DNA of 64,000 nt from sequence record PV730302.1, one strand, 5' to 3'. A program made the position numbers and the translations under genes. Below are positions 1-62,004 of this stretch, one piece after another (position 1 is the stretch's first letter; the number at the start of each line of letters is the position of its first letter). The notes beneath the pieces are model-generated. The model was not told the DNA's origin. It saw nothing but the letters and a program-made list of their open reading frames with translations, and ran no database searches. Origin of the DNA: a phage.

Positions 1-413
1 CGCAGAGCAGCCAGACGAGAACCTTTAACACCATATTTAGAAGCTTGCTTACGGACGTACCCTAAATAGGCTTTCATGTTGGTTGTATAGAACCGAGAAC
101 GATTGTCTTGGATAAATTTCCATACATCAGGTAAATCAGATTTAACCACCAGTTCAGGTGGAGTGTGGAGCATATCCAGAGCAACGGTTTCGCCTTCAGC
201 CGCCAGTTTAAAGAAATATTTCAGGCTATAAAGCTCGTGGTCAACATCATCTTTAGTGTTTTTGGAAGCAGTGTTATTCGTATTCAGGTTGGTATGGTTC
301 ATAGCCGTACCTAACAGAATATCACGCGGATGTGGAACAAAGATTTCTTTAAAATCAACATCAGATTCTGGAGTACTTGTTCCATAAAGGTGGCTACCGA
401 AGTAGCCTTTCAT
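1..413 (-). CDS. Pol-beta-type nucleotidyltransferase-like protein (N-terminal part; C-terminus lies beyond window start)
   Basis: Own translation of the minus strand (not in ORF track): MKGYFGSHLYGTSTPESDVDF... fits the GS-x(9-13)-DxD nucleotidyltransferase motif; ATG at 411-413. Confidence 0.5.
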   Translation of the reverse strand, partial: MKGYFGSHLYGTSTPESDVDFKEIFVPHPRDILLGTAMNHTNLNTNNTASKNTKDDVDHELYSLKYFFKLAAEGETVALDMLHTPPELVVKSDLPDVWKFIQDNRSRFYTTNMKAYLGYVRKQASKYGVKGSRLAAL

Positions 414-421
414 AACTGTTC

Positions 422-880
422 TCATTCTTTGTCCTCGAAGTGGATTACCGGACAGACCTTAGATTTACGAGCTTTAATGTATTGAATAACGATATTTTCT
501 TTAGTTTCTCGGCCTTCACGCTCAGCTTGAATACGTTGCCATTCCTTTTCTTCTCTACGGGCATCATACCATGCGTGTAAATTCATCGCACCGAATGCCA
601 AACCAATGGATAGCGCAATAATAAGAGCTATTGCAACCAATCCTAAAACAAACCCTAGACTCAACAGAACAGGGGTACTTAATACAAAGAAATGCTCTAA
701 TACACCAACACCTGCAACAGTTAATCCAAAAAGCGTACTACCTGCAACAACAGCACAAGCAAAACAAGCCCAAACCATTTTCCAGAAGTAAGCACATAAA
801 GAGTGCGGTCGAGAATGACTGTCATAAAAACGGTCATGAAGTTTAGCGTGCCAAGAGTTTGCATTGATAATCATAATCAT
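422..880 (-). CDS. small membrane protein (hypothetical)
   Basis: ORF track 152 aa; long hydrophobic segments consistent with 2-3 TM helices. Confidence 0.5.
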   Translation of the reverse strand: MIMIINANSWHAKLHDRFYDSHSRPHSLCAYFWKMVWACFACAVVAGSTLFGLTVAGVGVLEHFFVLSTPVLLSLGFVLGLVAIALIIALSIGLAFGAMNLHAWYDARREEKEWQRIQAEREGRETKENIVIQYIKARKSKVCPVIHFEDKE

Positions 881-8057: not shown

Positions 8058-8357
8058 TTAGAAAGAACCAGAACCTCTAATTGTGTTCTGGCGACCTTTA
8101 TTTTCTAATTCATAGTCGTCGATTTCGTAGGCTTGTGCTACACCAAAAGCCTTTTTAACTTTAGCTAAAGAGCCTTTAGACGTAACAATATTAAAAGTAT
8201 TACCTTTGGTAAAATCAACCAAATCCACTTGTACACCCTGTTTACCGAGGCTTGCTACAATAGCATCAACATATTCCTGGTCTAAATTGCCTTGAACTCC
8301 AATTTGAAATACTTTAGGAGCTTTGGCTTCTGTAATAAATTCTTGGTAAGTTTTCAT
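8058..8357 (-). CDS. internal-protein-like (capsid targeting sequence MKTYQEFITE)
   Basis: 99 aa; N-terminal 10 residues match the T4 IP capsid targeting sequence with an I-x-E cleavage motif; paralog of 21257-21565. Confidence 0.7.
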   Translation of the reverse strand: MKTYQEFITEAKAPKVFQIGVQGNLDQEYVDAIVASLGKQGVQVDLVDFTKGNTFNIVTSKGSLAKVKKAFGVAQAYEIDDYELENKGRQNTIRGSGSF

Positions 8358-8399
8358 ATTATTCCTTAAGTTGGTAGAAGTATTCTATCACGGATTTAA

Positions 8400-8816
8400 T
8401 TAAGCGTAAATCGCCTTACCATAATGTTTGTACCAGGTAGGGCGTTGTGCAATTTTTTCGTCCAAACGGGCTTGTGAAATGGCGATAGAAGCTTCGTGAG
8501 GAACATAATCATCACGGAATTCCTGAGGAATGTCACTAATGTCCTGGACAGTAGTATCCTTGATATTAAAACCACGTTTTAAACATTCGGCTATAAGCTC
8601 AATTTGTCGCTTACGTAAAAATTCAAGCTTATCGTAAAAGAATGTAACATGGCCTGTGCCAAGGATAAAAGTAGGACTGATTTTGAAATCACGGACACGT
8701 TTACCATTAGCAACATGCTTACGAACTGCACCGAAAACACGTGGTAATTCACGATATTCAGCCATTAAGTGTTGGTCAGCCAATTCAGATACTAAGGTAA
8801 GGTTGATACGAGTCAT
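8400..8816 (-). CDS. denV: endonuclease V, pyrimidine-dimer DNA glycosylase
   Basis: 138 aa; [31 protein letters not shown]... essentially identical to remembered T4 EndoV. Confidence 0.95.
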
Positions 8817-8832
8817 TTTTAATCTCCTGTAG

Positions 8833-8872
8833 TTGATAGGTCTATAGTATCATGACTACAGGAGATGTAAAC
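8833..8872 (-). promoter_or_regulatory. early promoter/stem-loop cassette upstream of denV
   Basis: same architecture; inverted repeat CTCCTGTAG/CTACAGGAG brackets the -10. Confidence 0.7.
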
Positions 8873-8896
8873 AACTTTTATCAAGTATCGGCTTTA

Positions 8897-9493
8897 TTAA
8901 TTACCACGGGCTGCATTAGCAACGGCGTAAGCGTACTGAATATTAGCGTCTTTAAACGTACCTTTAGAGGTATCTATTTCTGCCTTAAAGCCGCCTTTAG
9001 CCATAACATCGGCAAATTCTTTACGGAAAGTCATTGCATCAAGACCTTTCCATGTTGATTTGTGCTTGGCAAATTCAAGACCAGCGAAGTTGACAGCCTT
9101 AGCCAATTTATTATCAATAGTCCATTTACCTGCTTTAGGTACAAACACCGGGCCTTTCTGTTTAGAGAACAGTTTTAAATTCCAGCGACGAAGGTCACCG
9201 TCAGCTTTAACAAAAGCTGCGTCCAAGTTACTAGCAACAACATCTTGGATATGGGCAAATTTAAGTCCATCAGCTTCAATATTTAGGTCGTTACGCCAGC
9301 GAAGTCCTTCCCAGGCGAAAGCTTTAAAGTCGGAAGCTTTTGTAGCCAAGTACCGTTCAATAGGAGCTGTTTTAGCGTCAAAACCGTTTCCTGGGTTGTC
9401 AACGCCGTTTCCTTTGTAAGTCCACTCATCTTTATTAATGCCTTGGACCTTTCCTACAGAAGCTTCGGCGATAAATTCTTTATACGTTTTCAT
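8897..9493 (-). CDS. internal-protein-like (CTS MKTYKEFIAE), ipII/ipIII locus
   Basis: 198 aa; CTS at N-terminus; lies between denV and e as ipII/ipIII do in T4. Confidence 0.7.
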   Translation of the reverse strand: MKTYKEFIAEASVGKVQGINKDEWTYKGNGVDNPGNGFDAKTAPIERYLATKASDFKAFAWEGLRWRNDLNIEADGLKFAHIQDVVASNLDAAFVKADGDLRRWNLKLFSKQKGPVFVPKAGKWTIDNKLAKAVNFAGLEFAKHKSTWKGLDAMTFRKEFADVMAKGGFKAEIDTSKGTFKDANIQYAYAVANAARGN

Positions 9494-9540
9494 ACGGGTT
9501 CCTTAAAGGTAAATATTTTAATTGGTCTGTTCAAGTAACT

Positions 9541-9575
9541 GTAGATATACTATCACAATTCTAGGAGATGTAAAC
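9541..9575 (-). promoter_or_regulatory. early promoter, degenerate cassette variant
   Basis: GTTTAC at 9570-9575 (minus sense); core GTAGATATACTATCA. Confidence 0.45.
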
Positions 9576-9974
9576 TTATTTGTAGGTCTTCATCCAATTC
9601 TTGAACAAAGCCGCGACGTCTTTCTCTTTAACGTTCAGTTTAATGTCCAACATTTTACCACCGGCAGCACGTGTCTGACGAATCTTAGCAGTACCGGTTT
9701 CGCCATTCCACTCAACATAATACTGCCCAGTGTTCATTGCAATACCATCGCCGTAGTCTTCATTTTTAGAAGTTGTGAAGGCCAGCTTCATAGTCTTAGA
9801 TACACGAGCCTGCATGCCAGTCTGAAGGGCATTACGAACGCGAATAACTTGAGGAGTGGCCTGGGTCAGGTTCTCATTCAGTTCTTCAGTGAACTCTTCA
9901 GATTCAAACATCGCCAAAAGTTCTTTAGATGCAGGAATTACATTCTCTGCGATAAATTCATTATAAGTTTTCAT
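9576..9974 (-). CDS. internal-protein-like ([13 protein letters not shown]), ipII/ipIII locus
   Basis: 132 aa; CTS at N-terminus; immediately downstream of e. Confidence 0.7.
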
Positions 9975-18843: not shown

Positions 18844-19308
18844 TTATTTGATTTGTTTAGCAGACCAGATACGGTCTTTGATGATTTTCTGAATATCTTC
18901 AACATACTCTAAGTCGTGAGCATGCGGATTATCTTTGAAGCTATGTGCTCGTGCTAGTTTCTGGCCTTCTGTTTTGATTACTAAAAGCTCTTTAAGAATT
19001 GCTTCATACTTAGAAATAATTCCTTTGGCGATATTTTTTTCTTGAGCGGCTTTAGGGTCTGCTTTTGTAGCAGGTGCTTTACCTGTAGCTTTCTGGAACA
19101 ATTCACCTGATGCAGCTAGGCTTTTAAAAACTCGGCTAACAGTATTAGCATTAGTAAAACCTTCGGCTTTAAAATCTCTAATAAAACGGAAACGTTCTTC
19201 ATCAGAGGCGTCTTTGTAAGAATATTTACCTGCTTGAATTGCTGCAATCGCAGCGGCTTTTACATCTGAACTAGATTGTTCAGTCAAAAATTCATTGTAA
19301 GTTTTCAT
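18844..19308 (-). CDS. internal-protein-like (CTS MKTYNEFLTE)
   Basis: 154 aa; N-terminal CTS-like decapeptide. Confidence 0.65.
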   Translation of the reverse strand: MKTYNEFLTEQSSSDVKAAAIAAIQAGKYSYKDASDEERFRFIRDFKAEGFTNANTVSRVFKSLAASGELFQKATGKAPATKADPKAAQEKNIAKGIISKYEAILKELLVIKTEGQKLARAHSFKDNPHAHDLEYVEDIQKIIKDRIWSAKQIK

Positions 19309-19353
19309 TATTATTTCCTAAGTTAATTAACTTATCTATTTATTATGCCAAAA

Positions 19354-19377
19354 AGCCCCAACCTTTCGGAAGGGGCT
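19354..19377 (-). terminator. intrinsic terminator hairpin, compensatory variant of the 18218 hairpin
   Basis: AGCCCC-AA-CC-TTTC-GG-AA-GGGGCT on plus strand with A-run upstream (U-run in minus sense); closes the tRNA region. Confidence 0.55.
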
Positions 19378-19758
19378 ATGCCTTGCGGCAACCTTGTCGG
19401 GGTTCCACCTGCTAGGCAAGTGTTTGTACGAAACGCCGGGATTCGAACCCGGTTATTAAGTAGTTGACGCTACTCAATATTTTTAAAAGGCCATATCTCG
19501 ACCATATCCGAACGTTCCGTCAAAAACGCTACTCGGCTTACGGCAAAGATATTTCCTCGAATCGATAATTCGGTGCGCCGTTTCTGCTGTGATGTAAGGG
19601 GACGTTAACAGATCGTAAAGATTTGTTAATGTCAGTCCTTATTCAGGGAACATCAGTCCGACGACTTACCGGTAGCGACCCGGTTTCTTGTTTGGTGCGC
19701 CGGTGAATGCTGGTAATCAGTCTTCATACGACGGCTTGACTATATAATAGTCTTCATT

Positions 19759-19833
19759 TGGTATCCCGCCCTGGGATCGAACCAGGACCGCAAACTTAGA
19801 AGGATCGTATGCTATCCATTACACCAGCGGGAC
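19759..19833 (-). tRNA. tRNA-Arg (anticodon TCT), CCA encoded
   Basis: manual fold of minus strand: 7-bp acceptor stem, T-loop TTCGATC, anticodon loop CTTCTAA. Confidence 0.85.
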
Positions 19834-19838
19834 ATAGT

Positions 19839-19915
19839 TGGTGACCCGGACCAGATTTGAACTGGTAACCTTTCCCTTATGAGGGGACTGCTTCTAACCA
19901 TTGAGCTACAGGGCC
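19839..19915 (-). tRNA. tRNA with CAT anticodon (elongator Met or lysidine-type Ile), CCA encoded
   Basis: manual fold: acceptor GGCCCTG, T-arm ACCAG-TTCAAAT-CTGGT, anticodon loop CTCATAA; 5 nt from tRNA-Arg. Confidence 0.8.
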
Positions 19916-19920
19916 TTAAT

Positions 19921-20187
19921 TTAAATTACAAATCCAGCAGGAGCATTATCATCTTTAGCCATGTGCTGAATTGTATGATAAGTCATTTCTTCAGGAGCAA
20001 CCAGATAAGCCGCAACGTTAACTAGTGGAATTATTTTTGGTTTAGCGAACGTGCTATCAGAAATTGCCATAAAGGGCTCGCCGTCTCGTTCAACTTCGCC
20101 AAATTGGCATTCATATGAAATAGAACAACGTTTGGTAGTTGTTGTCTTGGTTTTAGGGTCATAAAAAGCTAATTTTAATACTAACAT
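19921..20187 (-). CDS. hypothetical protein
   Basis: ORF track 88 aa. Confidence 0.4.
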   Translation of the reverse strand: MLVLKLAFYDPKTKTTTTKRCSISYECQFGEVERDGEPFMAISDSTFAKPKIIPLVNVAAYLVAPEEMTYHTIQHMAKDDNAPAGFVI

Positions 20188-20315
20188 AACACCTCAAATA
20201 AAATTAAGTAAAGTAAGTTTAATTAATAGACCTTGTCTATTATGAAAGGTTCTTTGAGGGAAGAACCTTTGGTAATAGAGGGTATTAATGATAGAGTAAT
20301 AATATCACATAATTC

Positions 20316-20600
20316 TTAAAGCATATTAATGTAATCAAGTTTAATAGAAGCAATCTTCAAAGGATTTTTAAAGATGTCGTATTCGACCAATCCGTTTTCA
20401 GTTGCGGTATAAAAAGTAAAGTTAACAGAATTATAACGTTGGCTGTTAACTTTGAGTTTAACGTCGCTTGAACTACGGCCAATATTAACCTGTTGGACAT
20501 CAAGCACGGCATCTTTGCCAAAGTTGCGAATCAGTAGCTCTGCTGCAACCTGGTCTGAATTATATCCATTCTCTGGATTAGTAACCTTAACGTATAGCAT
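20316..20600 (-). CDS. hypothetical protein
   Basis: ORF track 94 aa. Confidence 0.45.
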   Translation of the reverse strand: MLYVKVTNPENGYNSDQVAAELLIRNFGKDAVLDVQQVNIGRSSSDVKLKVNSQRYNSVNFTFYTATENGLVEYDIFKNPLKIASIKLDYINML

Positions 20601-21002
20601 TTAACCCTCGTCTACAATAGTATGGGTATTAGCATTAACAATCTGCCACCAGTCAAAACGATCGGAGCCGTAAAGAAACTTATTCTCGTTTTCTTTAACA
20701 ATTTCACGTAGTTCATCTTCAGTGGCAGCTTTAGCGATTAAATCGGTATAGCCACCACGTGGATAGTAGTTATCACCCGCGAACAGAAGGAAATTTACTT
20801 TACCAGAAGGAACATATGCTTCCTTAGGATACTTGTTTCCTGCTTGGTCTACCACTTCAATATAACGGTAAGGAATATCGGTACTTTCAACCCATTGCCA
20901 AGCTGCAGCAGGGGATTCAAAAGCATCTACACCTAAACGGTTATCTTCATCTTTAGACGGATTATTTTCATAATCCGCATATGCATAATATTCAACGTTC
21001 AT
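20601..21002 (-). CDS. hypothetical protein
   Basis: ORF track 133 aa. Confidence 0.5.
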   Translation of the reverse strand: MNVEYYAYADYENNPSKDEDNRLGVDAFESPAAAWQWVESTDIPYRYIEVVDQAGNKYPKEAYVPSGKVNFLLFAGDNYYPRGGYTDLIAKAATEDELREIVKENENKFLYGSDRFDWWQIVNANTHTIVDEG

Positions 21003-21187
21003 TATTCACCTTTAGAGATTTTATCCATAACGATAGCGATTAAGCCGATTAGAAATGCTACTACCAATGAGATAGAATTTTCTGTTGTTGTCAGTAGTCC
21101 ACAAATGAATCCTACAAACATCGAAAAACTAAAAGCCATTGAAGCAATTACTACAGCAACATTACGAATCAGTTCAGCGCGTTTCAT
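21002..21187 (-). CDS. small membrane protein
   Basis: 61 aa, one to two TM helices; promoter cassette upstream. Confidence 0.4.
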   Translation of the reverse strand: MKRAELIRNVAVVIASMAFSFSMFVGFICGLLTTTENSISLVVAFLIGLIAIVMDKISKGE

Positions 21188-21204
21188 TTTATTCTCCTCA
21201 GTAG

Positions 21205-21244
21205 TTGATAGGGTAATAGTATCACTACCCTATCTAAAAGTAAA
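21205..21244 (-). promoter_or_regulatory. early promoter/stem-loop cassette (variant core TTGATAGGGTAATAGTATCA)
   Basis: GTTTAC at 21239-21244 in minus sense. Confidence 0.55.
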
Positions 21245-21256
21245 CGGTTTTATAAA

Positions 21257-21565
21257 CTATTTTATTCCGCGTGATGCAATCGTATTCTGCCGTTTAACGC
21301 CAGTTTGTTTAAAGTTATGATTGTCGAGTTGATCGGTACGAGCAACTCCGAATGATGATTTAATCTTAGCTTTAGATCCTTTAGTTATAGAAATAAACAT
21401 CTCGGGAGCCCCTTTCTTAAAGTCCGAAGCAATTACTTCAACACCGTTCTTAGCAAGTGACCTCAGAATTGCTTCCACATACTCATCATCAAGACCCGCT
21501 TGAGTATGAATAACGAATGTCTTTGGTGCAGCCGCTTCATTGATAAATTCTTTATAGGTTTTCAT
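21257..21565 (-). CDS. internal-protein-like (CTS MKTYKEFINE), ipI-like position next to 57B
   Basis: 102 aa; CTS; paralog of 8058-8357 with shared motifs along the whole length. Confidence 0.7.
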   Translation of the reverse strand: MKTYKEFINEAAAPKTFVIHTQAGLDDEYVEAILRSLAKNGVEVIASDFKKGAPEMFISITKGSKAKIKSSFGVARTDQLDNHNFKQTGVKRQNTIASRGIK

Positions 21566-21584
21566 TTTATGTTCCTAATTAATT

Positions 21585-21625
21585 TTGATGAGATAATAGT
21601 ACCACAACCCTATTTAAAAGTAAAC
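21585..21625 (-). promoter_or_regulatory. early promoter/stem-loop cassette (variant)
   Basis: GTTTAC at 21620-21625 in minus sense. Confidence 0.5.
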
Positions 21626-21898
21626 TCATTTTAAATAAATTGCATACTTTTTATAACCGGCCGTTTCGTGACGCAGCCCTTTTTCATTAGCAAAACGTTC
21701 AATATTGTTAATTTGATTCTGGTCGAGTTCTGAAGTATCAAATACAAAAAAGTTTCGCTTATTGCCTAAAGTTACGTGATTAGTCAAATCGATGTTATAG
21801 AGATGATTTATATCATCAATCATAGTCTTAACAGATTTGTTAATTTTTACTTCCTCATTAAGAATAGATTCAGCGATAAATTCTTGATAAGTTTTCAT
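21626..21898 (-). CDS. internal-protein-like (CTS MKTYQEFIAE)
   Basis: 90 aa; exact match to the canonical CTS decapeptide. Confidence 0.65.
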   Translation of the reverse strand: MKTYQEFIAESILNEEVKINKSVKTMIDDINHLYNIDLTNHVTLGNKRNFFVFDTSELDQNQINNIERFANEKGLRHETAGYKKYAIYLK

Positions 21899-55920: not shown

Positions 55921-57201
55921 ATGGCTAAAATTAACGACCTTTTAAAAGAGTCGACCATTACTTCGAGTTCTTCGATTGGTCGTCCAAATTTAGTAGCTTT
56001 AACCAGAGCTACGACCAAACTTGTTTATACCGACCTTGTAGCTCAGCAGCGTACTAACCAACCTTTGGCTGCTCTATATGGTATCAAATATCTTACAGAA
56101 AAAGATGAATTATCTTTCCAGACGGGTGCTACTTATTCCGGTGCAGTATCCGCTAAAGACCGTGCCACTATCCCAGTTTTCACTGCAGGTGCTGTTTACG
56201 CTAAAGATGATTTGTTCCAATTTGAAAACGTAGTTTATAAAGCTTTGGTAGCAACACCATTTGCAGGTGCTACTGGTGATGAATACGAACAACTTCAAGA
56301 AGCTATTGTTAAGTTGACTATTCGTATTATGTCTGACGCCGCACTGACTGAGCGTTTTGAAGGTCCTCAAGAAGTAGATATTTCTGAAGCTAAATTCGTC
56401 GTTAATAAATGGAACGCTCCAGTTAAATCCCGTAAGTTGAAGAGCACTGTTACTGTAGAACTGGCTCAAGACCTCGAAGCAAATGGTTTCGATGCCCCTA
56501 ATTTCTTGGAAGACCTCCTGGCTACTGAAATGGCTGATGAAATCAACAAAGATATTCTTCAGTCCCTGGTTACGGTTTCCAAGCGTTATAAAGTTGAAGG
56601 TTTGTGTGATGATGGCTTAATTGACCTGAGTTATGCTAACTCACCAGAAGCTTCTCGCAAGCTTTATGAGATAGTTTGTGAAATGGTTTCTCATATCCAG
56701 CGCGCAACCTCTTATACGGCAACTTATGTGGTAGCGAGTACTCGTGTAGCTGCTGTTCTGGCTGGTTCCGGATGGTTAAGACACACCCCACAGAACGACA
56801 AATATCTTTCTGCAAATGCATACGGATTCCTGGAAAACGGTTTGCCGGTGTATTGTGATACCAACACGCCAATTGATTATGTTACTGTAGGTGTTAAAGA
56901 GGAATTTGGTGGGAAAGAAGCAGTAGGTTCTTTGTTCTATGCGCCGTATACAGAAGGCCTTGATTTGGCTGACCCTGAACATGTGGGTACATTTAAAGTG
57001 GTTGTTGACCCTGAAAGCCTGCAACCATCTATTGCATTAATGGTTCGTTATGCACTGGCTGCTAACCCTTATACGGTTACTGCTGATGATAAACAAGCCC
57101 GTATTATTGATGCGACTAATATGGATTTGATGGCGGGACGTTCTGATATGTCTGTATTGCTTGGTGTGAAACTTCCTAAAGTTTTGACTGAATTAAACTA
57201 A
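55921..57201 (+). CDS. 24: capsid vertex protein gp24
   Basis: 426 aa (T4 427); gp23 paralog. Confidence 0.95.
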   Translation: MAKINDLLKESTITSSSSIGRPNLVALTRATTKLVYTDLVAQQRTNQPLAALYGIKYLTEKDELSFQTGATYSGAVSAKDRATIPVFTAGAVYAKDDLFQFENVVYKALVATPFAGATGDEYEQLQEAIVKLTIRIMSDAALTERFEGPQEVDISEAKFVVNKWNAPVKSRKLKSTVTVELAQDLEANGFDAPNFLEDLLATEMADEINKDILQSLVTVSKRYKVEGLCDDGLIDLSYANSPEASRKLYEIVCEMVSHIQRATSYTATYVVASTRVAAVLAGSGWLRHTPQNDKYLSANAYGFLENGLPVYCDTNTPIDYVTVGVKEEFGGKEAVGSLFYAPYTEGLDLADPEHVGTFKVVVDPESLQPSIALMVRYALAANPYTVTADDKQARIIDATNMDLMAGRSDMSVLLGVKLPKVLTELN

Positions 57202-60217: not shown

Positions 60218-60225
60218 TATAAATA
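60218..60225 (+). promoter_or_regulatory. late promoter TATAAATA (uvsW)
   Basis: exact octamer 28 nt upstream of uvsW ATG. Confidence 0.65.
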
Positions 60226-60253: not shown

Positions 60254-61750
60254 ATGCAAATTCAAGTACATTTTGATAATTTTAGTCATGTCCGTATCGA
60301 GTGTGATGAATCCACATTCTACGAACTCAGAGACTATTTTAGCTTTGAAGCTGATGGATATAAATTCAACCCTAAATTTCGTTATGGGCAATGGGATGGG
60401 CGTATTCGTCTTCTAGATTATAACCGTAAACTGCCTTATGGACTTGTCCCTCAAATTAAAAAGTTCGCCGAACAATTTGAATATTCTCTGTGGATTGACC
60501 CACGTATTCTTGAACAGGAAGATATTTCTCGTGAAGATTTTGACTCATGGGTTGCTTCTCAAGAAATTTATTCAGGGTCTACCAAGATTGAGCCTCATTG
60601 GTATCAGAATGAAGCCGTATACAACGGCCTGACAAAACGACGCGCAATTCTGAATTTACCTACATCCGCAGGTAAATCATTGATTCAGGCGCTCCTGAGT
60701 CGATATTACGTTGAGAACTACGAAGGTAAAATCCTTATTCTGGTTCCTACTACTGCACTTGTCGACCAGATGATTAATGACTTCATCGATTATCGATTGT
60801 TCCCTAAAGCAGCAATGCTTGGTATTCGTTCAGGTACTGCTCGTGATTCTGATGCAATGATTTACGTTTCAACTTATCAAACTGCTATCAAGCAACCTAA
60901 AGAATGGTTTGCTCAGTTTGGTATGTTTATGAACGACGAATGCCATTTGGCTACAGGTAAATCTATTTCTACTATCATCGAAGGCCTAACCAACTGTATG
61001 TTTAAATTCGGTTTGTCTGGTTCTTTAAAAGATGGTAAAGCTAATTTAATGCAATATATGGGTTTGTTTGGTGATGTGTTTAAGCCGGTATCCACTTCCC
61101 AATTAATGGAAGAAGGACAGGTTACTGACCTTAAAATCAACAGTATTTTCCTTCGATACCCAGACGAATTCACTGTTAAGATGAAAGGTAAAGATTACCA
61201 ATCAGAAATTAAAGTCATTACTAAGGCTACTCGTCGTAATAAATGGGTTGCTAATTTAGCTGTTAAACTCGCTAAGAAAGAAGAGAACGTATTCCTGATG
61301 TTTAAAAACATCGAACACGGTAAAACTCTTTTTGAAATGGTTAAAGAGCAACATAAAGAAGTTTATTACGTATCAGGTGAAGTTAATACCGAAACGCGTA
61401 ATGCTCTGAAAGTAATGGCGGAAAATGGTAAGGGTATTATTGTTGTGGCAAGTTATGGTGTGTTCTCTACTGGTATTTCCGTTAAGAACCTTCACCACGT
61501 TGTATTTGCCCATCCAGTAAAATCTAAAATCATTGTACTCCAGACAATTGGTCGTGTACTCCGTAAACATGCCTCTAAATCAACAGCACAGGTGTGGGAT
61601 ATCATCGACGACATGGGTGTTAAGCCTAAATCAGCTACGGCTAAAAAGAAATATGTTCATTTGAACTACGCCCTCAAACACGCTTTAGAACGTATTCAAC
61701 GTTATGCTGATGAGAAATTTAATTACGTAATGAAACAGGTGGATTTATGA
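60254..61750 (+). CDS. uvsW: UvsW RNA-DNA and DNA-DNA helicase
   Basis: 498 aa; helicase motifs LNLPTSAGKS and MNDECH; strong match to remembered T4 UvsW. Confidence 0.95.
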   Translation: MQIQVHFDNFSHVRIECDESTFYELRDYFSFEADGYKFNPKFRYGQWDGRIRLLDYNRKLPYGLVPQIKKFAEQFEYSLWIDPRILEQEDISREDFDSWVASQEIYSGSTKIEPHWYQNEAVYNGLTKRRAILNLPTSAGKSLIQALLSRYYVENYEGKILILVPTTALVDQMINDFIDYRLFPKAAMLGIRSGTARDSDAMIYVSTYQTAIKQPKEWFAQFGMFMNDECHLATGKSISTIIEGLTNCMFKFGLSGSLKDGKANLMQYMGLFGDVFKPVSTSQLMEEGQVTDLKINSIFLRYPDEFTVKMKGKDYQSEIKVITKATRRNKWVANLAVKLAKKEENVFLMFKNIEHGKTLFEMVKEQHKEVYYVSGEVNTETRNALKVMAENGKGIIVVASYGVFSTGISVKNLHHVVFAHPVKSKIIVLQTIGRVLRKHASKSTAQVWDIIDDMGVKPKSATAKKKYVHLNYALKHALERIQRYADEKFNYVMKQVDL

Positions 61751-61974
61751 AAACCTTTAAAGAAGTTATTCAAGAAGCATCTATTGAAAGCTTCATGGCT
61801 AAAATTGGTTCTTGTCAGACTATGGATGGTCTGAAGGAATTGGAAAAGTATTACAAAACTCGTAGTAAGGAAGCTGAACTTCGTGATTCGGATGATATTA
61901 GCGTGCGCGATGCATTGGCTGGTAAGAGAGCTGAATTGGAGTCGATGGACGACGAGGAAGAGGAAGATTTCTAA
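61747..61974 (+). CDS. uvsW.1: UvsW.1-like small acidic protein
   Basis: 75 aa overlapping uvsW stop; N-terminus MKTFKEVIQE resembles the capsid targeting sequence. Confidence 0.7.
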   Translation: MKTFKEVIQEASIESFMAKIGSCQTMDGLKELEKYYKTRSKEAELRDSDDISVRDALAGKRAELESMDDEEEEDF

Positions 61975-61982
61975 ACAAAAAA

Positions 61983-62004
61983 GGCCCAACCTTTCGGAAG
62001 GGCC
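61983..62004 (-). terminator. terminator hairpin GGCCC..GAAA..GGGCC plus U-run (minus sense), identical to 18218-18239
   Basis: 22-mer identical to the copy at 18218; A-run on plus strand upstream. Confidence 0.55.

Follow-up and report, generated by a model that had tools for sequence, protein, structure and literature searches.

The UvsW.1 protein of bacteriophage T4 is known from a nuclear magnetic resonance (NMR) structure (PDB entry 2JPN), which is said to stem from the work of Kerr et al. 2007 (J Biol Chem 282:34392). The uvsW.1 gene was recognised through the correction of a sequencing error that lay at the end of T4 uvsW, and it has been described as a conserved open reading frame (ORF) of unknown function (PMC1524935). 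Moreover, UvsW.1 has been called a potential DNA-binding partner of the helicase UvsW (PMC7824862). A second described element that bears on the present case is the capsid targeting sequence (CTS). The CTS of the T4-type internal proteins (IPs) IPI, IPII and IPIII is the decapeptide MKTYQEFIAE (Mullaney and Black 1996, as related in PMC9026906 and PMC3012670). According to PMC9026906, residues 4 and 7 of the CTS are the main determinants of targeting, and residues 8 and 10 those of processing. Here, we describe the uvsW.1 gene in a 64,000-nucleotide (nt) stretch of phage DNA (sequence record PV730302.1), which is called the window throughout. The product of this gene starts with the CTS-like decapeptide MKTFKEVIQE. 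With a probability of roughly 75%, the decapeptide is a conserved N-terminal module of the UvsW.1 proteins and functions in the context of recombination and repair by UvsW rather than as a capsid address tag.

The ORF is an orthologue of T4 UvsW.1 and an ordinary copy of a gene that is already known. It matches 2JPN (E = 5e-28), the Pfam family PF11637 (UvsW-1; E = 2.5e-24, 85.6 bits with a cut-off of 25) and phrog_1143 (E = 2.4e-37). The AlphaFold2 model, which is based on 43 homologues, has a predicted local distance difference test score (pLDDT) of 83 and contains three helices formed by residues 4-22, 26-43 and 47-69. Residues 73-75 have a pLDDT below 50, and the last residues are predicted to be disordered. 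A Foldseek search with the model revealed 2jpn as the top and only significant PDB match (template modelling scores of 0.73/0.70, probability 1.00). The identity to T4 UvsW.1 is about 71% over residues 3-75, and the protein is conserved across genera with identities of 60-97%. The gene in PV730302.1 shares with its T4 counterpart the position after uvsW, the downstream hairpin and the converging gene uvsY.-2. The two proteins have in common the helical bundle, the acidic tail ending in Phe and the N-terminal core F-K-[EQ]-phi-[IL]-x-E-A, in which phi stands for a hydrophobic residue. However, uvsW and uvsW.1 are separated by about 25 nt in T4, whereas they overlap by ATGA in PV730302.1. Moreover, the T4 protein starts with MLLE rather than with MKT and has Phe instead of Val at position 7. 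A previous sequence-only reading had described a small acidic ORF that overlaps the uvsW stop codon and had likened it to UvsW.1. The ORF lies exactly at the described position (Table 1), it encodes 75 amino acids (aa) and overlaps uvsW by ATGA, and the assignment is confirmed by 2JPN, PF11637, phrog_1143, the synteny and the AlphaFold2 model.

The resemblance of the UvsW.1 start to the CTS is real, far above chance and not special to the PV730302.1 phage. The start agrees with MKTYQEFIAE in the residues M, K, T, E6, I8 and E10, and it shows a conservative exchange of Y4 for F4. The cleavage-type motif [L/I]-x-E is present as well (I8-Q9-E10/A11), which speaks for the motif and not for actual cleavage. 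The BLOSUM62 scores of the UvsW.1 start are 28-36 against the decapeptides of the six IPs encoded in the window and 31 against the T4 CTS, and no start of an unrelated ORF in the window exceeds 23 against either the T4 CTS or the UvsW.1 start. The pattern M-x-x-phi-x-[ED]-phi-phi-x-E is found in 8 of the 163 ORFs of the window (first-ATG ORFs of at least 50 aa), namely in the six IPs, gp24 and UvsW.1, and in none of the 210 ORFs of two other T4-like loci. A DNA form of the pattern (ATGNNNNNNNTNNNNGANNTNNTNNNNGAR) detects gp24 and uvsW.1 only, in the whole window and on both strands; shuffles gave an expectation of 0.14 matches, and 0 out of 100 shuffles reached 2. Together with the I-x-E site, the alignment scores and both pattern searches lead to the conclusion that the resemblance exceeds chance. 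Thus, the sequence-only reading, which had placed the start MKTFKEVIQE-A close to the CTS including the I-x-E site, was correct in this respect. It has to be noted that neither the specificity of this match to head propeptides nor the modular N-terminus described below appears in any paper within the searchable literature.

The comparators from the window deserve a brief description. The six CTS-type starts follow the consensus MKTY[QKN]EF[IL]xE and are located in two loci on the minus strand (8058..9974 and 18844..21898). Four of the six ORFs match PHROG families annotated as 'internal head protein' or 'internal virion protein'. The remaining two (9974..9576 and 19308..18844) match PHROGs of unknown function only; since they carry a CTS start, they are probably unannotated internal proteins. 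The seventh comparator is gp24, whose N-terminal propeptide is cut off by gp21 (PMC5694885). The gp24 propeptide shares the abstract pattern with UvsW.1. However, gp24 is a shell protein that enters the capsid by its own fold, whereas UvsW.1 lacks similarity to any capsid protein. Alt was also considered as a comparator having a propeptide of ten residues, and it was dropped because the published Alt propeptide site is ITE-6.

The motif itself turned out to be widespread among UvsW.1 proteins. In an alignment of 43 homologues (A1), every sequence has E10, I13, F16 and M17, and at least 90% of the sequences have F4 and A11. The more general motif [FY]-x-x-phi-phi-x-E is present inside the first 16 residues in 67 of 81 family clusters, where it starts at residues 3-8. 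For instance, the N-termini read MLLEFKQFLYE/ASIDEF in T4 (MLLEFKQFLYEA), MGMFQQFIAE/ATVGSF in Aeromonas phage Aes012, MISFKRFLVE/AAIDGF in the RB49-like phage GEC-3S and MKSFEEIMYE/A in the Gaprivervirus-type phages. Within the family, the motif is found at varying distances from the initial Met, with shifts of about -1 to +3 residues. Positions 3 and 9 differ even between close relatives (MKSFKEVIYE vs MKTFKEVIQE), and all four of the residues K2, T3, E6 and F7 are variable across the family. The motif core F-x-x-phi-phi-x-E-A is a trait of the UvsW.1 family, and the lineage of PV730302.1 merely has MKT in front of it. The UvsW.1 of this lineage looks more CTS-like than that of T4 because of the MKT start, which replaces the MLLE and the one-residue shift of the T4 protein.

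Natural CTSs follow other rules. A set of 11 natural CTSs was compiled, of which six are from the window and five from the Gaprivervirus phage DK-13; the loci L003 and L006 (DK-13) were scanned by DNA patterns only. K2, T3, E6 and F7 are present in all 11 sequences. At position 8, natural CTSs have I or L in ten cases and Phe in one, whereas Met and Val occupy this position in 16 and 4 of the 81 UvsW.1 clusters, respectively. The UvsW.1 start falls outside the natural consensus M-K-T-[YF]-x-E-F-[ILF]-x-E because V7 stands in place of F7; nine of the ten positions are compatible. Moreover, the UvsW.1 peptide does not track the resident CTS. The Gaprivervirus CTS (MKTYQEF[IL]xE) is the same as in the window but the UvsW.1 protein begins with MKSFEEIMYE. 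In Aes012 and GEC-3S, the UvsW.1 peptide is kept and no ORF of the MK.[YF].E type was detected in the one 50-kb region, syntenic to the IP loci, that was inspected for each phage, which leaves room for a CTS elsewhere in these genomes. The putative cargo also differs from the known ones. After the hypothetical cut, UvsW.1 would have an isoelectric point (pI) of 4.3 and a net charge of -9, as opposed to pI values of 6.8-9.9 and charges of 0 to +8 for the six IPs. UvsW.1 is conserved, acidic and fixed beside uvsW, whereas the IPs are polymorphic and reside in plastic IP loci. In the searchable literature that mentions UvsW.1, no association of the protein with virions has been reported, and a mass-spectrometry study of T4 heads describes IPII, IPIII and Alt and does not mention UvsW in the text and supplements. 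The possibility that the start of uvsW.1 arose by recent gene conversion from an IP gene was rejected: the first 33 nt are identical at 21-27 positions, and the upstream regions lack similarity. The identity of 21-27 out of 33 nt can be attributed to the shared residues and AT-rich codons.

Distant homologues indicate that the decapeptide is separable from the rest of the protein. When 1.84 billion representative proteins were searched with a profile, only 36 clusters were obtained. In the distant homologues, the peptide is located at the extreme N-terminus, and between it and the core (phi-x-I-x-x-F-[LM]-x-K-I...) lies a charged linker of low complexity, which is about 5-70 residues long. Examples are VKNFTTFLVE-SEERAKV-SIEGFL and MISFKSFIRE-KEEELPKEGNGATV-DISSFL, as well as proteins in which MKKFSVFMES is separated from AAIESFI by about 45 residues or MKFNFKLFSE from VSIDSFV by about 70 residues. 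The MKKFSVFMES variant is a UvsW.1 protein of 121 aa with a charged linker of about 45 residues. It is encoded on a metagenomic T4-like contig (L004; ERZ14207102 NODE_18) directly 3' of uvsW with an overlapping start. On this contig, the uvsW / uvsW.1 context could be confirmed and no IP cluster was found; cultured phages having linkered UvsW.1 variants were looked for and not found. In the AlphaFold2 model of the 93-residue homologue P0076, the three core helices have a pLDDT of about 90, the linker is disordered and the N-terminal helix (residues 4-10) has a pLDDT of about 62. Moreover, the core occurs without the N-terminal peptide in proteins of about 290 aa (about 260-300 aa), in which it is fused to a nucleotidyltransferase-like domain. 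In the PV730302.1 protein, the Pfam match spans residues 20-73. Taken together, the linkers, the P0076 model, the core-only fusions and the start of the Pfam domain at residue 20 argue that the peptide is not required for folding. As judged from these sequences and models, the decapeptide is dispensable for the fold, and E10/A11 is a true module boundary. The boundary weakens the plain view that the decapeptide represents the first turns of helix 1, and it leaves a docking helix or a targeting peptide. The tail appears to be equally characteristic of the family: E73 and F75 are invariant in alignment A1, and the tail is retained by most of the distant homologues.

Some further observations were made with the hits of the profile search. 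In the core-only fusions P0083, P0085-P0088, P0090, P0092-P0094, P0098 and P0099, the core is N-terminal and the motif FARMNPPTxAH is present. These proteins are covered by phrog_14207, which is labelled 'DNA helicase'; the label looks like a carry-over from the old fused uvsW reading frame. The idea that UvsW.1 could be a detached C-terminal domain of UvsW, in which case the peptide would be internal in a fused protein, was discarded, as none of the 36 clusters is fused to a helicase. Three long hits (P0089, P0095 and P0097) represent repetitive proteins; the sequences of two of them were inspected and proved to be unrelated to UvsW.1.

The reading that we favour, for which the probability was given at the outset, can be outlined as follows. 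UvsW.1 would be a small accessory protein of the UvsW helicase and would consist of three parts, an amphipathic N-terminal helix with the motif F-x-x-phi-phi-x-E, a three-helix core (residues ~11-65) and a disordered acidic tail ending in Phe. The decapeptide is predicted to run straight into helix 1 in the PV730302.1 phage and to be tethered by a linker in distant relatives. It may act as a docking helix, which either folds back onto the core or binds a partner such as UvsW, and it may work alongside the Phe-ended tail. The identity of the protein, its fold, the conservation of the motif and the modularity have been shown, and both the docking role and the absence of packaging are inferred. 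Two sources probably account for the likeness to the CTS, the general composition of amphipathic N-terminal helices (hydrophobic residues at positions 4, 7 and 8, Glu at positions 6 and 10) and the MK[TS] start of the lineage. Indeed, MK[TS] starts are common among the ORFs of the PV730302.1 lineage, and Lys is generally favoured as the second residue at translation starts. Since K2, T3, E6, F7 and the register vary in UvsW.1, the peptide does not appear to be under CTS-type constraint. Regarding the tail, a likeness to gp32, a protein that binds single-stranded DNA (ssDNA), deserves mention. It is stated in PMC5314882, which describes the study by Perumal et al. (2013), that the acidic tail of gp32 binds UvsW. 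The tails of gp32-type proteins are disordered and strongly acidic like that of UvsW.1, to which an invariant aromatic end is added. Unlike the ssDNA-binding proteins, UvsW.1 has neither an oligonucleotide/oligosaccharide-binding (OB) fold nor reported DNA binding through the tail. As the tails resemble each other and UvsW binds the one of gp32, the tail of UvsW.1 might by analogy occupy that site on UvsW, or it might dock on another replication or recombination protein.

The sequence-only reading had left two alternatives, a shared helical motif or a packaged and processed protein. The former is better supported by the family-wide core, its presence in T4 and the predicted helix 4-22; for the latter no support was obtained, and the indirect tests speak against it. 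If MKTFKEVIQE were a true CTS, UvsW.1 would bind the gp22 scaffolding core by its N-terminal helix while the prohead assembles, the prohead protease gp21 would cut after E10 (I-Q-E/A), and the acidic 65-residue remainder consisting of core and tail would be retained in the head and reach the next host along with the DNA, so that UvsW.1 would be an overlooked conserved internal protein. Several points count in favour of this scenario and weigh against the docking module that we prefer. Among the 373 ORFs, the pattern is restricted to UvsW.1 and head proteins with N-terminal propeptides, which in the window are only the six IPs and gp24. Three of the four functional CTS positions, namely F4, the aliphatic residue 8 and E10, are among the best-conserved positions of the UvsW.1 peptide family-wide, and position 7 is hydrophobic; these are the positions reported to matter in PMC9026906. 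A natural CTS having F4 exists in Escherichia phage DK-13 (MKTFNEFFNE), which shows that real CTSs tolerate F4 and a non-aliphatic residue at P3. Moreover, the peptide is separable, as is evident from the linkers, the core-only fusions and the low pLDDT of the N-terminal helix of P0076 in comparison to its core. The invariant Glu lies exactly at the linker-defined module boundary (E10/A11), as a gp21 site would require, and it is not accounted for by helix packing. The uvsW/uvsW.1 operon is preceded by a late promoter, a small acidic protein of low copy number could escape classical gels, and the proposed docking function has no identified partner. These points have to be balanced against V7 in place of the Phe found in every natural CTS, the lack of conservation of K2, T3 and E6, the variable register and the Met or Val residues at position 8. 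In addition, the peptide does not co-vary with the CTS of the same phage, it persists where no MKTY-type ORF was detected in the syntenic 50 kb, the cargo is acidic and conserved unlike the IPs, the gene is tied to a late-acting helicase, and the literature on UvsW.1 and the T4 head study are silent with respect to virions. Thus, UvsW.1 shares with the CTS-bearing proteins a ten-residue N-terminal peptide with predicted helicity, [IL]-x-E followed by Ala and a late promoter, and it differs in V7, in the unconserved K2/T3/E6 and register, in the acidic helicase-tied cargo and in the location of the gene outside the IP loci. On balance, a true CTS is unlikely. The view that UvsW.1 is an unrecognised conserved capsid-targeted protein, whose module binds the prohead core, is removed by gp21 after the invariant Glu and leaves a protein that is injected with the DNA, is if anything slightly less probable. 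The sequence-only reading had also regarded a T4 UvsW.1 with the same N-terminus and no virion association as decisive against packaging. Only half of this was found: the T4 protein has the motif core but its N-terminus is not the same, and the virion side consists of an absence of reports.

Two other explanations do without capsid targeting. The decapeptide could be purely structural, forming the first turns of helix 1 without a function of its own, in which case amphipathic periodicity and a common MK start would by coincidence produce the likeness to the CTS. The continuous helix of residues 4-22 in the AlphaFold2 model (pLDDT ~81-89) and the superposition of the model on the T4 NMR structure agree with this idea, and the spacing of the hydrophobic residues 4, 7, 8 and 11 would be ordinary for an amphipathic helix. 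However, the core is confidently predicted to fold on its own and can be set apart from the peptide by disordered spacers of about 5-70 residues, the peptide is missing from the core-bearing proteins of ~290 aa, residue 20 is where the Pfam domain starts, and packing does not explain the invariant exposed Glu10. We therefore judge a purely structural role to be improbable, and a little more so than capsid targeting. Least probable is an explanation by shared ancestry without present function, according to which the CTS and the UvsW.1 peptide derive from one helix module moved by recombination, with only the IP copies targeting the capsid. The peptide indeed behaves as a mobile and separable module, and near-exact halves of the CTS can be found in UvsW.1 proteins, such as MKTFEQIYEEFIAEA in P0041 and FQQFIAEA in Aes012, which may be compared to YQEFIAEA of the CTS. 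Duplications or insertions at the module boundary, as in P0065 (...YEATIREATI...) and P0041, also fit this scheme. However, there is no nucleotide trace beyond the shared amino acids and the codon bias, and the upstream regions are not shared. Furthermore, ten residues are too few to separate homology from convergence, and UvsW.1 is more widely spread than the MKTY-type ORFs in the examined regions. Among the readings considered here, a conserved family module that acts in the UvsW context accounts best for the N-terminus of UvsW.1.

UvsW.1 has a solved structure and no known function, and its three modules provide handles for finding partners. If the peptide were a capsid address tag, the rules for import into the T4 head would have to be widened, and head assembly would be connected with recombination and repair. 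A capsid-targeted UvsW.1 would link late recombination and branch processing to the prohead, and a conserved internal protein would stand beside the polymorphic ones. If the peptide is not a tag, it represents a natural negative control for the CTS positions that matter (K2, T3, F7 and the register). The value of such a control would be practical because the CTS is used for loading foreign proteins into T4 particles (PMC8442874, PMC10229621).

Table 1 Features discussed in the text. Positions refer to the window unless another record is named; a slash separates a decapeptide from the residue that follows it
Feature	Position	Strand	Basis or remark
uvsW.1 ORF, 75 aa plus stop	61747..61974	+	Sequence MKTFKEVIQEASIESFMAKIGSCQTMDGLKELEKYYKTRSKEAELRDSDDISVRDALAGKRAELESMDDEEEEDF, MKTFKEVIQE/ASIESF...EEEDF
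N-terminal decapeptide MKTFKEVIQE, CTS-like, I-x-E end, then A11	61747..61776	+	Pattern specificity, family conservation, linkered homologues
Conserved helical core, residues 11-65, from I13-x-x-F16-M17	61777..61941	+	Pfam, alignment, AlphaFold2
Acidic C-terminal tail SMDDEEEEDF, final invariant Phe	61942..61971	+	Alignment A1; disorder prediction
uvsW, superfamily 2 (SF2) helicase, 498 aa	60254..61750	+	ORF list; annotation of relatives
T4-type late promoter box TATAAATA	60218..60225	+	29 nt 5' of the uvsW ATG
Shine-Dalgarno-like AGGTGG	61737..61742	+	Within the uvsW end, 4 nt 5' of the uvsW.1 ATG; read from the sequence
GC-rich hairpin GGCCCAACCUUUCGGAAGGGCC	61983..62004		Between converging uvsW.1 and uvsY.-2; -13.6 kcal/mol, z = -2.7
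gp24 N-terminal decapeptide MAKINDLLKE/S (comparator)	55921..55950	+	Same pattern
CTS-bearing IP ORF, decapeptide/N (comparator)	9974..9576	-	
CTS-bearing IP ORF, MKTYKEFIAE/A (comparator)	9493..8897	-	
CTS-bearing IP ORF, MKTYQEFITE/A (comparator)	8357..8058	-	
CTS-bearing ORF, MKTYQEFIAE/S (comparator)	21898..21626	-	
CTS-bearing ORF, MKTYKEFINE/A (comparator)	21565..21257	-	
CTS-bearing ORF, MKTYNEFLTE/Q (comparator)	19308..18844	-	
CTS variant MKTFNEFFNE, Phe at position 4 and at P3	16893..16922 in L006 (DK-13, MT611523.1)	-	

The surroundings of uvsW.1 correspond to those known from other T4-like phages. Judging by nucleotide identity, the DNA of the window comes from a T4-like coliphage that is JS98-like (Dhakavirus-type); it is nearest to Escherichia phage 04086 (98.9% identity), and JS98 and IME08 share 95-96% identity with it. 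In close relatives (95-99% nucleotide identity), the uvsW ORF is annotated as UvsW or as RNA-DNA and DNA-DNA helicase. The genes are arranged in the order uvsW / uvsW.1 / hairpin / uvsY.-2 / uvsY / gp25 / gp26. The placement of uvsW.1 as a small ORF 3' of uvsW that faces uvsY.-2 over a hairpin is repeated in Aes012, GEC-3S, T4 and the metagenomic T4-like contig. In PV730302.1, the ATG of uvsW.1 (61747-61749) shares bases with the TGA of uvsW. This overlap and the AGGTGG sequence suggest translational coupling, by which uvsW.1 would be translated in step with the helicase gene. T4 uvsW is a late-expressed gene. Together with the late promoter box upstream of uvsW, this implies that uvsW and uvsW.1 would be part of a late transcript that is made when proheads assemble; late promoter boxes occur 19 times in the window, with 7.3 expected. 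The hairpin downstream of uvsW.1 is a probable bidirectional terminator. It was missed by a simple terminator scanner because the plus strand lacks a T-run. A bidirectional terminator 3' of uvsW.1 has been found to be conserved in T4 and five relatives (PMC1524935).

The annotation of uvsW.1 is inconsistent among sequence records. In the T4 clone MZ375356.1 (L005), the ORF is intact at 289..519 yet unannotated, and many other records carry it under the names 'DNA helicase' or 'hypothetical protein'. The missing and wrong labels make literature and proteomics look-ups for UvsW.1 unreliable. Two additional observations were made. The metagenomic contig that carries the linkered uvsW.1 also encodes an Alt-like ADP-ribosyltransferase (L004 15584..17047, plus strand), which starts with MQFFTEQTMDQFLAE/S and has the CTS-like sequence QFLAE at residues 11-15. 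Moreover, the portal protein gp20 of the PV730302.1 phage (50193..51767, plus strand) and UvsW.1 share the carboxy-terminus EEEEDF, which may be coincidental for acidic tails or may mean that both tails bind the same pocket.

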